A DNA stretch of 28,434 nt from an uncultured Alphaproteobacteria bacterium (GCA_946611025.1 CAMOCR010000001.1:1-28434); one strand, 5' to 3'; shown: positions 15,618 to 19,726, counted from the first letter of the stretch. Numbers and translations: made by a program. The notes: generated by a model from the letters alone, not told the origin.

Positions 15618-18600
15618 TTATACATAACGTGGTCTATTGTAATCTTTTCCCGAAATAAAGTCAATATCATCCATAAAAAAAACACCCAAATGGGTGTTTT
15701 TATTAAATAGACTTGCCAAATATCGCAGCGCATTATTATTTATCAACTGGTATCCATTCATGCTGGGCGATGCAAATTGCAAGTCTTCGGCATTCGGCGA
15801 TGCGAAATATTGCATTTGCAATGGCGGCAATGTTTCCGTCAATTTTTCCGCAATTTGTGCTGTACGCATAATGTCAGCCTTTGGTGTATAGCGTGTAAAC
15901 GCGCCACTGTTGATATCAACATTGGTAAACGGCGTCCATTTCGCAACACCATCCGCCGTATCAACCATAAACGGTATTATGTTATTATTATGTTTCACCA
16001 ATACCACCGCATGGTTTGCGATTGAAACAATGTTTTCTTTGATGCCATTTGATGTTTCAATTGGAACCAATTCAATATTTGAATTTTCCACGACACCAAT
16101 AACACCATTTGCACGATTCCGCACATTGTTGAACAAATCGCCATTTGCGCTTGTCACCGTCCCGGCACCTGATGTTTCGCCTTTTTTGCCGGCACCACCA
16201 ATCAGCAACGCCGCGCCAACCCCCAGGCCCGCGACCCCGGCACCAATTGCCGCGGCCCCCAATCCAGATATACCAGATTTTTTGGTATTATTACCAGACG
16301 ACGATGTTGTGTTTGACACGTCATCATTGGGTTGCGGTTTGTTTTCTGGTAAATCGGGGACAATAATTGGCGCATCATCTGGTATAACAATGTCGTCAAT
16401 AATAATTTCACTGTCTTCGATTTCCACATCTGGTAAAACGGGTGCCGCCGGAATTGCTGGCTTTAATATCGGCACCGAAATCGGTTTATCGTCTGGCACA
16501 GCGATATCTTCGATAACAACATCTTCGTCTTCTATATCCACCAAGTCTGTTAATACCGATGGTCGACGCACAACAAAAGGTATTGATTCCCCTTTTGTAA
16601 TCAAATCACCTGCACCAACCGCAATCGCCGACAATGCTGCTGGATTAAATACAACATTTGACAATGATGTTATTGTTGCCGTCACAACAGATGCCCCAAC
16701 CCCACTTATTAATTCAACCGTATCGCCAACCTTATAACCCTGGCTTAACAAATATGCCGCCAAATCAGAATTTCTGGCGAATTTCGCACCATTAACCGTC
16801 ACATTTTGCACAAAGCTGTTTGGTGTTAATACGGAATTCAAGCCATCTGGTGAAACATCTTTCAACATTGCTTTGCTATTTTTCATGTCGTTTACAATTC
16901 TTACCCGACGCGTTTCACCAATACCACGAATAACAGATGTTGTTTGGGTCATCGTTGATGCGATTTGTGCAAAAGATTTCAAAACCCCACCCAGAATCAT
17001 TGAAACATCACCTATTGTTCTGACGCTCTGCCAAAACTGTGTTTTTTCTTTGACAACACAATCACCACGACTGTTGCAATTCCACACCTTTGGGTCATCC
17101 AACCAATTCCAAAATTCATCTTCGGCTGGAATTTTTTTGAACAATTTTGCAAATGATTCATCCAATGTTTTCTTTTCTGCATTGGTCAAATTCTTTTCAT
17201 AACTTACCATTTTCTGCAGATTTTTTTGCAACATATCCTTGGCACATTGAACATCGGTACTGTTCAAACATTTATTCAAATCTGATGCAAATTTATCGGT
17301 ATACACAAAATATTCTGTTGCGACTTTTGATGCCGTTGCCATGGTTCCACCGGCAACAGTTAACCCCGTACCAACATTTGCAACCACAACCCAAACGCCC
17401 GATGCACTGCCGCCCGAAAACACCGTCAATGCCACCGCCGTCACAACCAATCCCGTATAGCCGGCAATTTCCAATCCTTTTTGTAAATTTGTTGCCGCTT
17501 TGGCGCTGGGCAATACACACACTTGTTTGTCCGCATCCCAATATACAGTTTTACAATCTGGGCATACCGACGCGCTTTGTTGTTTTACGATATTACATCC
17601 CTGTTCATTAAGGCTTTGACATCTTTTACCATCAAATGAACCATCTGCTGCGATACATGAAATTCCCTGGTATCCGCCATCGGATATTTTTTTACGTGTT
17701 TCAGATAAATCGTCAAACACAAAATCAACTTCTTGACCATTAACAAAACACTTCAAAACATCATCTCTTATATTTCCAGCCTTTGTTGTACAACCACCAC
17801 CAGTGTATGAAACATCGCTTTGTACACAACTAAACGATGTGACTGGAACATTTACATGACTGCGTACATATGCCTCAATCTGTGAATCCAATGATGCATT
17901 GGCTGCTATCTGAATATCACGACAAAACGCAAATCTGTCCAGCCCAAACGCTGTTTTTAATCCAGATGTATCTCTTATCGTTTCAAAAGAAATTTCACAT
18001 TTTGTATCGTTCCATTTGGCCGCAAACCCAAAATCATGCAAATCTTTGTCTATTTTTGAACACGCATCTGCATTTGCCGCCGCACATGTCGGTTCCCAGC
18101 AAACAAATTGCGCACTTACATTTGTACCGCCGCCGGTACATCCCCCCGCCGTAAACGGTGCATTATGCAAAACATCACACACCGCACGCACAATCCCATC
18201 GCGACGCGTTTTATCGTTCTTTTCCCGAACAGAATCAAATTTGACTTCATAAAATTTGTTTTTTGATACAGACGTACATGGCACATAATCATCATAGTTG
18301 TGTGTCCACCAATTTTTTTCTTCCATTGCACACATAACACCATCGCCGGTCTTGTTAACAACCAACTTCTTTGCTAAATATGGCGCGCTGCGCATGTCTA
18401 CTTTGACTTTTTTAAATTCTTCTTTGAAACACTGTCCTGTTCCACCATTCCCCGGTGTGACCCCGGATTTGCATACATGATAAAAATCCGTTGTACTTGC
18501 TTTAACCAATGCGGCTACAAATTTTGAACATTTATCAATTCCACTTTGCCGACCCAAATTCCAGCCCGCCGCAACACATGTTGCCGCCAAGTCACGCGTA

Positions 18601-18785
18601 TTAACCCCCGCGCCATTATTACGATTCAATGCATCAAAAATTGCGCGCACAACATCGGCCTGTTTATTTTGGTCTACATGACCGGAAACAACCGCATCAA
18701 TTGCATCAGCCGTCAATTGCACATTTGCCACTGCCGGCATAATGAAAAACAACGAAAATAAACCAATTAAAAATTTCTTTATCAT
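15618..18785 (-). CDS. Large secreted modular hypothetical protein (1055 aa)
   Basis: Signal peptide ending AVA; Cys-rich N-terminal half; several Gly-rich hydrophobic segments; acidic Pro-rich repeat; Cys-free C-terminal domain. ATGA overlap with the upstream gene. Confidence 0.88.
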   Translation of the reverse strand: MIKKFLIGLFSLFFIMPAVANVQLTADAIDAVVSGHVDQNKQADVVRAIFDALNRNNGAGVNTRDLAATCVAAGWNLGRQSGIDKCSKFVAALVKASTTDFYHVCKSGVTPGNGGTGQCFKEEFKKVKVDMRSAPYLAKKLVVNKTGDGVMCAMEEKNWWTHNYDDYVPCTSVSKNKFYEVKFDSVREKNDKTRRDGIVRAVCDVLHNAPFTAGGCTGGGTNVSAQFVCWEPTCAAANADACSKIDKDLHDFGFAAKWNDTKCEISFETIRDTSGLKTAFGLDRFAFCRDIQIAANASLDSQIEAYVRSHVNVPVTSFSCVQSDVSYTGGGCTTKAGNIRDDVLKCFVNGQEVDFVFDDLSETRKKISDGGYQGISCIAADGSFDGKRCQSLNEQGCNIVKQQSASVCPDCKTVYWDADKQVCVLPSAKAATNLQKGLEIAGYTGLVVTAVALTVFSGGSASGVWVVVANVGTGLTVAGGTMATASKVATEYFVYTDKFASDLNKCLNSTDVQCAKDMLQKNLQKMVSYEKNLTNAEKKTLDESFAKLFKKIPAEDEFWNWLDDPKVWNCNSRGDCVVKEKTQFWQSVRTIGDVSMILGGVLKSFAQIASTMTQTTSVIRGIGETRRVRIVNDMKNSKAMLKDVSPDGLNSVLTPNSFVQNVTVNGAKFARNSDLAAYLLSQGYKVGDTVELISGVGASVVTATITSLSNVVFNPAALSAIAVGAGDLITKGESIPFVVRRPSVLTDLVDIEDEDVVIEDIAVPDDKPISVPILKPAIPAAPVLPDVEIEDSEIIIDDIVIPDDAPIIVPDLPENKPQPNDDVSNTTSSSGNNTKKSGISGLGAAAIGAGVAGLGVGAALLIGGAGKKGETSGAGTVTSANGDLFNNVRNRANGVIGVVENSNIELVPIETSNGIKENIVSIANHAVVLVKHNNNIIPFMVDTADGVAKWTPFTNVDINSGAFTRYTPKADIMRTAQIAEKLTETLPPLQMQYFASPNAEDLQFASPSMNGYQLINNNALRYLASLFNKNTHLGVFFMDDIDFISGKDYNRPRYV
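16350..16538 (-). repeat. Two-copy internal repeat in the 1055-aa protein
   Basis: DIEDEDVVIEDIAVPDDKPISVPIL (16464-16538) and EIEDSEIIIDDIVIPDDAPIIVPDL (16350-16424), 38 aa apart. Confidence 0.75.
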
Positions 18786-19726
18786 TTTGCCAACTCCCTT
18801 TCACAGCCATCTGCAACATTTGAAACCTTTTTGATTGCGCTTATTTGCGTTGCATTAAACACCGTTGCCGTGACCGATGCCGCCGTTGATGCCCCCGCCA
18901 AGACATTTGACGCCGTGTTCAAATTCTTTTCTTTTTGCTTTCCAGAATCACTGTTATCATTACGCGTTTTATCGGTATTTGCAGCAATTGATGTCACCGT
19001 ACCCGCCGCACCAGTTGTTGCACCAACAATACTGGATACCATTGCGCCTGTTGCGCGATTATCAATTTTTGATAAATCAACAGTGTCATAGTCACCGCAT
19101 TTAGATATAATATTGTCTGCATTACCGACATCGCGCCCTTCGATACGTGCCTGCATCATGCTGTCGCGCAAATCTTTGATTGACGATTTGCATCTTTCAA
19201 TCATTGTTGCCAAATCTTCATCAACTTTATTTGTTCCGGCAATAACCGCACCGGCAACATTTGTCACGGTGCCGCCCGCCATTAACCCAGTACGCCAATT
19301 TCCCAACGACTTTGACTGTTTGTTTAATTTATCCAGTTCCGATTGATACGCTGCACTGTTTTCTGCTGCCTTGGCTAATTCTGCACTAAACTCTTTCAAA
19401 AACGCATCTGCTTCCGCTTCAGACGGTGGGTCCATTTGTGATTCTTTGTTTATTTCGTCTATTTTTGCCAATAATTCTTCTAATTCTTCGGCTTGCTTAT
19501 CCTTGGACGCCTTAACAATACCAACAACCGTTGCACCGGCATTTGCCGCCGTTCCAACACCAGTCACCGCGGTATTTATCCCCGCCATTGTTTTCAGTGG
19601 TGCCAATTTTGCCGATATTCCACCACATGCCGATTTGGCATTATTCATGGCAATATCAATATCTAAAATTTCCGCATGCGCCGGCACAGCCAACAGCACC
19701 GCAAAAACAGAAAACCAGATTTTCAC
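18782..19726 (-). CDS. Secreted Gly/Ala-zipper helical protein, paralog B (hypothetical, 314 aa)
   Basis: Start moved to GTG 19726 (AGGGGGG RBS); signal peptide ending AHA; 4 Cys; homologous to 746-1699. Confidence 0.85.
   Translation of the reverse strand: MKIWFSVFAVLLAVPAHAEILDIDIAMNNAKSACGGISAKLAPLKTMAGINTAVTGVGTAANAGATVVGIVKASKDKQAEELEELLAKIDEINKESQMDPPSEAEADAFLKEFSAELAKAAENSAAYQSELDKLNKQSKSLGNWRTGLMAGGTVTNVAGAVIAGTNKVDEDLATMIERCKSSIKDLRDSMMQARIEGRDVGNADNIISKCGDYDTVDLSKIDNRATGAMVSSIVGATTGAAGTVTSIAANTDKTRNDNSDSGKQKEKNLNTASNVLAGASTAASVTATVFNATQISAIKKVSNVADGCERELAK

Follow-up and report, generated by a model that had tools for sequence, protein, structure and literature searches.

What does a two-gene unit do for a gut bacterium when one of its products belongs to a family without a name and the other is a 1055-residue exported protein of equally unfamiliar type? 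The unit in question, locus B, lies in a 28,434-nucleotide stretch of DNA (hereafter the window; GCA_946611025.1, CAMOCR010000001.1:1-28434) from an uncultured alphaproteobacterium whose genome assembly (G000) amounts to 0.71 Mb in 94 contigs and is ~80% complete. It encodes a 314-residue protein, which we call the helper, and directly behind it the large partner. We conclude that locus B is an instance of a two-gene module specific to one lineage, gut Alphaproteobacteria with reduced genomes, whose relatives are labelled Candidatus Enterousia. Helper and partner genes are paired throughout the loci that we surveyed, they diversify together as cognates, and they evolve rapidly. As to function, the reading that we favor, at a probability of roughly 45%, is that each helper would export or display the cargo made with it, in a manner functionally like that of MafA and MafB of Neisseria but without homology to them.

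The order concerned, Rs-D84, is common in animal guts, has genomes smaller than 1 Mb from which most biosynthesis is absent, is thought to live off other cells, and has been proposed to be partner-dependent (PMC12306168). Named relatives of the helper come from metagenome-assembled genomes (MAGs) labelled Candidatus Enterousia or "Alphaproteobacteria bacterium" from the rumen, colon, and caecum of ruminants, and locus B itself is present in bovine and sheep gut metagenomes. Its G+C content (0.39 to 0.45) is similar to that of the remaining window. The literature that we searched yielded no paper describing the helper or partner proteins, and the word "secretion" is absent from the one genomic study of the group.

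The link between the two genes emerges from a survey of 46 fetched loci, found by a search seeded with a 3-sequence alignment, in which genes were called by a simple longest-open-reading-frame rule and which contain 51 nonredundant helper genes. A gene on the same strand follows 49 of the 51 helpers, in 48 cases within 30 nt and mostly through an ATGA overlap; apparent overlaps of 22 nt reflect an upstream in-frame ATG inside the ribosome-binding site. The 48 partners form 17 BLAST clusters, and all but one (47/48) begin with a signal-peptide-like N terminus, compared with 29% of the other genes in the same loci (binomial P = 6e-21). The upstream neighbors are unrelated housekeeping genes. In a second family of the order the pairing is usually reversed, with a Cys-rich signal-peptide protein encoded directly upstream of the helper (L047 to L060), and that the two genes stay neighbors although their order has changed argues well for a functional link. 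The core of the original prediction, a conserved subunit systematically paired with differing Sec-exported partners, therefore holds well beyond the window, and the copy count and classification of downstream genes that it had proposed as a check turned up a clear enrichment of exported partners.

Clustered at 90%, the helper family has at least 2166 members, and at 50% identity it forms 433 clusters; every one is unnamed or annotated as "hypothetical" and has no Pfam domain. Of 24 genomes of the same genus, 20 have the helper (1 to 5 copies), as do all six genomes of the second family (6/6, with as many as 12 matches). Searches of 10 genomes from the four other families of the order, and of 300 further genomes sampled evenly across the class (two of them from the same genus), did not find it. 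The helper is known, then, from two of the six families of one alphaproteobacterial order.

Three helper-partner cassettes are present in the source genome (Table 1). Helper A (P0002) is 32% identical to helper B (P0001; BLASTP E value, 2e-39), and the sequence blocks that had been proposed as common to the two, LGNWRTGL, KI(D/E)NR, TS.AAN, KE..LNT, and CE..L, are all found in both. As predicted, the architecture at helper A is the same, with an unrelated protease in the partner position. The trypsin signal in the truncated window copy is weak (E value, 0.012 to 0.014, below the cutoff), whereas full-length relatives at the same position exceed the Pfam cutoffs (Trypsin, 54.4 bits; Trypsin_2, 32.9 bits). 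Helper C begins 15 nt past an autotransporter-like gene of 1756 codons and ends 1 nt before the gene for a 207-residue Cys-rich signal-peptide protein. The gene that ends 9 nt before helper A (1709-3307, minus strand) encodes a lipoprotein-like protein of 532 residues with LysM-like repeats and an M23-like C terminus, NlpD-like by eye only; the same arrangement is found at a second locus (L002).

In a tree of the 51 helpers, clades largely follow partner class, requiring 20 changes for ~19 states, so that the pairs mostly codiversify as cognates. A few partner swaps are seen among close relatives, such as a Tlde1-type partner inside a clade of the 207-residue type. The "interchangeable cargo" that had been proposed is thus real as far as the variability of the partners goes, but it is not freely interchanged. 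At the syntenic locus of the closest relative, threonyl-tRNA synthetase (ThrRS) is 94% identical and the upstream gene product 86%, compared with ~70% for the helper and 50% for the partner. Change this rapid within otherwise stable surroundings is what one expects of proteins that face other organisms. Genomes carry 0 to 12 helper copies, and species differ in their partner repertoires.

The helper represents a new helical family of exported proteins. An AlphaFold2 model built from a 91-sequence alignment is all-helical (pLDDT, 85; pTM, 0.63), with long helices at residues 37 to 95, 103 to 165, 218 to 249, and 260 to 313. Apart from four cysteines, the invariant residues are G69 and G142, the latter in the S2 motif, where R145, T146, and G147 are nearly invariant. 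Four segments (S1 to S4) are the best-conserved parts; family-wide they have almost no charged residues and consist of 60 to 70% Gly, Ala, Ser, and Thr. From topology only, the cysteines would pair as C34-C179 and C210-C308, and the four segments would pack together. The arm between S1 and S2 is a charged coiled coil of unconserved sequence and variable length, and helper variants of 580 to 708 residues, inspected for fused domains, gave only coiled-coil-like noise, consistent with a longer arm. In second-family genomes (L047 to L060), some helpers of 570 to 660 residues have long coiled-coil arms. An internal duplication, with two Cys-stapled hairpins, seems doubtful (hhalign probability of 34% over 42 columns).

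No library that we tried recognizes the helper, a family that the original prediction had not recognized either, and no characterized nontoxin family emerged. Neither Pfam nor NCBIfam has a family that P0001 or 90 relatives match above noise; when helper and partner sequences were compared with these two libraries and the PDB, nothing but noise came back, the best being TIGR04527 at 19.8 bits against a cutoff of 125; and fold comparisons of the modelled helper (PDB Foldseek, VIA-align wide, AFDB clusters, and ESM Atlas) returned generic helical bundles or the family itself. The label "Gly-zipper" turned out to be a loose one: strict GxxxG occurs 0 to 1 times per segment and small-xxx-small motifs 3 to 7 times, and Pfam families of the Gly-zipper or Rick_17kDa_Anti type gave no helper match at E values up to 1. 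Membrane insertion stays conjectural. The segments are charge-free, but their hydrophobicity is only moderate (family mean Kyte-Doolittle, ~0.8 to 1.15; Eisenberg, 0.26 to 0.54), they are not amphipathic (hydrophobic moment, 0.11 to 0.16), and no pore-former fold was matched. The conserved core looks more like an assembly or membrane element than like a varied binding surface.

The 1055-residue partner B is a mosaic. Its overall model is of moderate confidence (pLDDT, 66.6) and places the Cys-free, beta-rich C-terminal domain at residues 880 to 1030; residues 436 to 620 are modelled as a hydrophobic helical hairpin, in which T454 and G459 are invariant among relatives, followed by a helical bundle. 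The low-confidence linker holds two transmembrane (TM)-like segments, residues 711 to 729 and the Gly/Ala-rich residues 839 to 857. With three such segments in all, the earlier description of this protein as secreted does not tell the whole story, although its ATGA junction with the helper is as described. Residues 1 to 205 recur as the N-terminal module of partners of 481 to 486 residues, whose C-terminal region is instead that of the Tlde1/YkuD-type partner L007. One relative (P0280) is 62% identical to partner B in the C-terminal domain and 22% in the N-terminal region, while another (L023) matches residues 1 to 733 at 34% and has no such C-terminal domain; most other members of the class have only the first 500 to 680 residues in common. 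The C-terminal domain, which is rare (six proteins found), behaves in these comparisons as a swappable cassette. Partner B matched no Pfam or NCBIfam family and no known fold, and an Atlas feature search with the C-terminal domain was also empty.

The wider repertoire gives more clues to function. The largest single-linkage cluster, which contains partner B, has 18 members, 14 of them of 857 to 1206 residues and four of 353 to 486 residues. There are nine trypsin-like proteases, four Cys-rich partners of 207 to 237 residues, two glucosaminidases (PF01832), one ankyrin-repeat protein, and at least 10 partner types without a recognizable domain. Two partners (L007 and L028) pass or approach the Tlde1 and YkuD cutoffs; L007 scores 32.3 bits for Tlde1_dom against a cutoff of 30.1, also passes the YkuD cutoff, and has a signal peptide. 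A search for the type VI secretion system (T6SS) sheath (TssC/VipB) found none in five genomes of the genus, and this result together with the signal peptide led us to reject T6SS delivery of the Tlde1-type cargo. TM-like segments are confined to the class of ~1000 residues, and the other partners appear to be soluble exported proteins. A closely coupled, immunity-like small third gene is present at ~5 of 46 loci and absent from locus B. Such genes, encoding 132 to 162 residues, stand tightly behind partners at L006:4389-4796, L011:4393-4800, L016:4926-5324, and L032:6856-7344; one pair among them has 64% identity, and all are possible immunity or accessory proteins. Many partner classes have a similar amphipathic helix just past the signal peptide (in partner B, window 18660-18722, minus strand). 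With a profile of the 1000-residue class, the scores of other partners exceed background by a small margin (Mann-Whitney P = 2e-4), L010 being the one clear case, and this helix may be a helper-recognition element. No C-terminal motif shared across partner classes was seen.

Locus B has the appearance of a bounded unit, with a terminator-like hairpin and an extended -10 site upstream and a weak hairpin and TATAAT downstream, in agreement with the earlier description of a unit with its own extended -10 promoter, insulated by an upstream terminator. These calls are consensus matches, and promoter-like sites are no more common in the window than in shuffled sequence (9 observed versus 12.5). The upstream hairpin begins 17 nt past the stop codon of a membrane-protein gene (19841-20599) and is most simply that gene's terminator, which would bound the cassette. 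Helper B starts at a GTG (19726) behind AGGGGGG and ends at a TGA (18782-18784); only ~29 nt separate the -10 site from the start codon, too few for a long leader. Downstream, thrS starts 139 nt past partner B. Rfam gave no match within the window. Elsewhere in it, the original prediction had flagged a 680-residue open reading frame (26155-28197, minus strand) as a candidate YbeY-Lnt fusion and a four-gene cluster (24172-26002, plus strand) as HNH-like plus SUKH-like.

Table 1. Coordinates of locus B, its paralogs, and the pilus-like genes of the source genome. Positions refer to the whole 28,434-nt window unless a locus (L) is named; all genes of the module in the window are on the minus strand.
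Feature	Position	Strand	Description
Helper B (P0001), 314 aa	18782..19726	-	Signal peptide aa 1-18 (AHA|E), invariant Cys 34/179/210/308, all-helical model
Helper B segment S1, aa 47-71	19514..19588	-	Charge-free, Gly/Ala/Thr/Val-rich, among the family's best-conserved parts
Helper B variable coiled-coil hairpin	aa 75-135	-	Arm between S1 and S2
Helper B segment S2, aa 141-166	19229..19306	-	LGNWRTGL motif, then charge-free small-residue helix
Helper B segment S3, aa 224-249	18980..19057	-	Charge-free small-residue helix ending TS.AAN
Helper B segment S4, aa 268-294	18845..18925	-	NLNTASNVLAG..., charge-free small-residue helix
Partner B (P0003), 1055 aa	15618..18785	-	Signal peptide; 26 Cys, all before residue 577
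Partner B Cys-rich alpha/beta region, aa 22-435	17481..18722	-	Block-mean pLDDT mostly 70-93, two dips near 55
Partner B hydrophobic helical hairpin, aa 436-493	17307..17480	-	Gly/Ala/Val-rich; 19-mer Kyte-Doolittle 1.75
Partner B linker, aa 691-879	16149..16715	-	Low-confidence/disordered, acidic/Pro-rich repeats
Partner B C-terminal domain, aa 880-1055	15621..16148	-	Cys-free, beta-rich
ATGA stop/start overlap, helper B and partner B	18782..18785	-	GGGAG Shine-Dalgarno within helper's last codons
Promoter-like site TTGGAA-18-TGnTATAAT (extended -10)	19755..19784	-	Consensus match
Terminator-like hairpin	19798..19824	-	12-bp stem, 7 G-C pairs, G+C-rich, then T-run
Weak terminator-like hairpin past partner B stop	15570..15583	-	Followed by TATAAT ahead of thrS
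Helper A (P0002), 317 aa	746..1699	-	Paralog of helper B
Partner A, signal-peptide trypsin-like protease	3..749	-	ATGA (746-749) join to helper A; cut by contig end
Third cassette, contig C6	L001:4579-11416; helper C 5204-6130	-	Helper C 50% identical to helper B
Type IVb-pilus-like genes	L061:3837-6426 (contig C11), L062:3213-7865 (contig C15)		TcpQ + secretin; PilO-like + T2SSE + T2SSF

How might such a pair work? Under the export or display reading, helper and cargo would bind each other in the envelope, and the helper would carry the cargo across the outer membrane or anchor it there, either by forming its own helical oligomer in that membrane or by passing the cargo on to the single secretin of the genome; the cargo would then act on other cells. 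At locus B that cargo would be the 1055-residue mosaic, from its Cys-rich front and hydrophobic helical hairpin through the disordered linker to the exchangeable C-terminal domain. The envelope location is suggested by the signal peptides on both proteins, the four invariant helper cysteines, and the presence of DsbA in the genome. That the cargo would act outward is suggested by the trypsin-like, Tlde1/YkuD, glucosaminidase, and ankyrin domains, the lack of a T6SS sheath in the genomes searched, and the mosaic C terminus of the 1000-residue class. Systematic pairing, cognate codiversification, rapid evolution at a syntenic locus, and the proposed partner dependence of Rs-D84 also speak for this reading, and MafA/MafB is its closest precedent with experimental support.

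The original prediction had noted that no secretion apparatus lies nearby. The window indeed has none, yet elsewhere the genome encodes a type IVb-pilus-like set (TcpQ and a secretin, together with a PilO-like protein, T2SSE, and T2SSF) as well as TolC-family proteins, an autotransporter-like protein, and DsbA. No DsbB-family protein was found in this genome or in four others of the genus, all of which have DsbA, although their Cys-rich exported proteins are numerous. VirB4 was not found in the source assembly, ~80% complete as it is, and is present in the four near-complete relatives searched. Across the order, where 41 genomes were examined, VirB4 occurs in all 29 high-quality genomes (29/29) and a single-copy secretin in 28 of the 29, in all six families; a published genome survey had reported type IV pili only for another lineage. 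Since every family of the order has secretin and VirB4, whether or not it has the helper, we reject a phyletic linkage of either to the helper. At the level of single loci there are hints of a connection. Cassettes stand directly downstream of the secretin gene in two genomes (G002, locus L014 on contig C7, and G009, L011 on C8, with gaps of 78 and 102 nt), and in a third (G007, L006 on C4) a cassette lies ~2 kb from it. These cases are suggestive and concern a minority of cassettes, and because the type of cassette beside the secretin gene differs between genomes, they may reflect either a preferred insertion spot or a functional link.

Several observations weigh against export or display by the helper. 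Secretin, VirB4, and TolC already provide outer-membrane routes, also in families without the helper. The helper lacks a lipobox and resembles no known secretion component, and its segments are only moderately hydrophobic and not amphipathic. Partner B has no recognizable family or fold, and its C-terminal domain no recognizable toxin fold. A few helper genes have no adjacent partner, and the binding of helper to cargo is something that we infer. In its strongest form the proposal would make the helper the outer- or target-membrane part of a new, self-sufficient Sec-dependent pathway, one that uses helical hairpins rather than a beta-barrel and through which a shifting set of enzymes and large mosaic proteins would reach other cells; we hold this version to be doubtful, though not far-fetched. 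The original prediction as a whole fares in the same divided way, since systematic pairing and the effector-like domains of some partners support it and its membrane-inserting subunit does not find support.

That prediction had leaned toward a binary toxin, in which both proteins leave the cell and the four helper helices enter the membrane of a target, where they form a pore or translocator through which the cargo passes. We regard this as unlikely, although it would account for the best-conserved parts of the helper being four charge-free segments of 20 to 25 residues separated by a coiled-coil arm of varying length, and for cargo that would act inside another cell, such as the ankyrin protein or wall enzymes that need the periplasm of a target. 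Chains of solved alpha-pore-formers (AhlB, SmhB, and YaxAB) do appear in the Foldseek list. The best of these rows, however, have E values of 0.65 to 1.5 and TM scores of at most 0.26, VIA-align returned generic four-helix bundles only, and a ClyA-type fold was therefore rejected. The segments are less hydrophobic than usual membrane helices and lack amphipathicity; the partners are unrelated to the helper, whereas the components of known bi- and tripartite alpha-pore-formers are structurally related to one another; and both proteins would still need an exit route from the producer.

The scarcity of immunity-like third genes (~5/46 loci), in a system where some of the cargo would attack peptidoglycan, brings to mind a different role, in which the helper would be a periplasmic safety catch, a holdase or inhibitor of its cognate hydrolase or toxin, with export proceeding through the secretin or some other route. 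One-to-one translational coupling and cognate codiversification would suit such a binding partner, and the secretin with its TcpQ, PilO-like, T2SSE, and T2SSF companions, next to or near which some cassettes stand, could supply the exit. Yet a single fold would have to neutralize at least 17 unrelated partner types, among them a nonenzymatic ankyrin protein; the parts of the helper that are best conserved are bland, uncharged helices and not a varied binding surface; and the secretin is found in all six families, the helper in only two. We think this improbable, somewhat more so than the binary toxin. Least probable of all is that helper and partner build or remodel the producer's own envelope, with the helper as a scaffold for wall enzymes or large envelope proteins: some partner families do include housekeeping wall enzymes (YkuD, glucosaminidase, proteases), helper A follows the LysM-rich, NlpD-like (by eye only) gene at 9 nt, the 1000-residue class has TM-like segments, and one homolog is labelled "S-layer family protein" by NCBI, but the cassette outpaces its neighbors (partner, 50% identity; flanks, 86 to 94%), copy number varies from 0 to 12 with species-specific repertoires, four of the six families do without the helper, and an ankyrin cargo with a signal peptide is ill suited to housekeeping.

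A multicopy, fast-evolving module in which one conserved helper is joined to proteases, cell-wall enzymes, ankyrin proteins, and giant mosaic proteins is a strong candidate for the interface between Rs-D84 bacteria and other cells. Should the helper prove to be an export or translocation device, it would explain how a Tlde1-like enzyme can be delivered in a Sec-dependent manner without a type VI system. The helper and the 1055-residue partner, both apparently without a relative of known structure, are targets for structure determination.

Among known systems, the MIB-MIP proteins of Mollicutes are likewise multicopy two-gene pairs of host-associated bacteria with reduced genomes, and one member is a serine protease; compared by description only, they differ in that both members are conserved, whereas one side of the helper-partner pairs is highly variable. 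The alpha-pore-forming toxins (YaxAB/XaxAB, AhlABC/SmhABC, Hbl/Nhe) resemble the helper in their long helical form, coiled-coil stalk, uncharged small-residue helices, and small operons. Unlike them, the helper is accompanied by an unrelated partner, often an enzyme, and has four invariant cysteines. Measured against polymorphic toxins, C-terminal exchange is seen (P0280), while partner B has no recognizable toxin fold and no immunity gene next to it. TcpF of Vibrio cholerae and CofJ of enterotoxigenic Escherichia coli (ETEC) are Sec-exported soluble proteins that leave through the secretin of a type IVb pilus. The source genome has TcpQ, secretin, PilO-like, T2SSE, and T2SSF proteins, and some cassettes adjoin the secretin gene; unlike in the TcpF and CofJ systems, most cassettes are unlinked to pilus genes, and the secretin is order-wide where the helper is not. 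Two-partner (type Vb) secretion shares the two-gene layout, with a conserved partner beside its own Sec-exported variable cargo. Its TpsB, however, is an Omp85-type beta-barrel with POTRA domains, in contrast to the all-helical helper model, and the partners have no TPS domain as TpsA does; the ShlB family gave no match in five genomes, in a search whose control was silent too.

The MafA/MafB systems come closest. MafA is similar in size to the helper. It is a non-beta-barrel outer-membrane helper encoded beside a Sec-dependent cargo, with cognate specificity and several copies per genome; as studied by fractionation and protease-accessibility assays, it is required for secretion of the cargo and forms outer-membrane oligomers (Arenas et al. 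2020, PMC7738311). In the module described here the helper gene likewise adjoins that of a signal-sequence cargo, no beta-barrel is predicted for the helper, helper and cargo are matched as cognates, and genomes hold several copies; as in MafB, cargo of the 1000-residue class joins a conserved front part to a C-terminal domain that can be exchanged. There are also differences. The helper has no Pfam or NCBIfam match, with the presence of a MafA model in those libraries unconfirmed; where MafA has a lipoprotein signal, the helper has a signal-peptidase-I site (AHA|E) and no lipobox Cys; no DUF1020 was found in partner B or ~50 partner proteins scanned; an immunity gene is missing at locus B and rare elsewhere; and many of the partners are small enzymes in their own right, not toxin domains attached to a carrier domain. 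With no sequence similarity, lipoprotein signal, DUF1020, or locus B immunity gene, membership in the Maf family is rejected. If the helper is indeed an export or translocation device, it would stand as a nonhomologous counterpart to both the MafA/MafB and the two-partner pathways.

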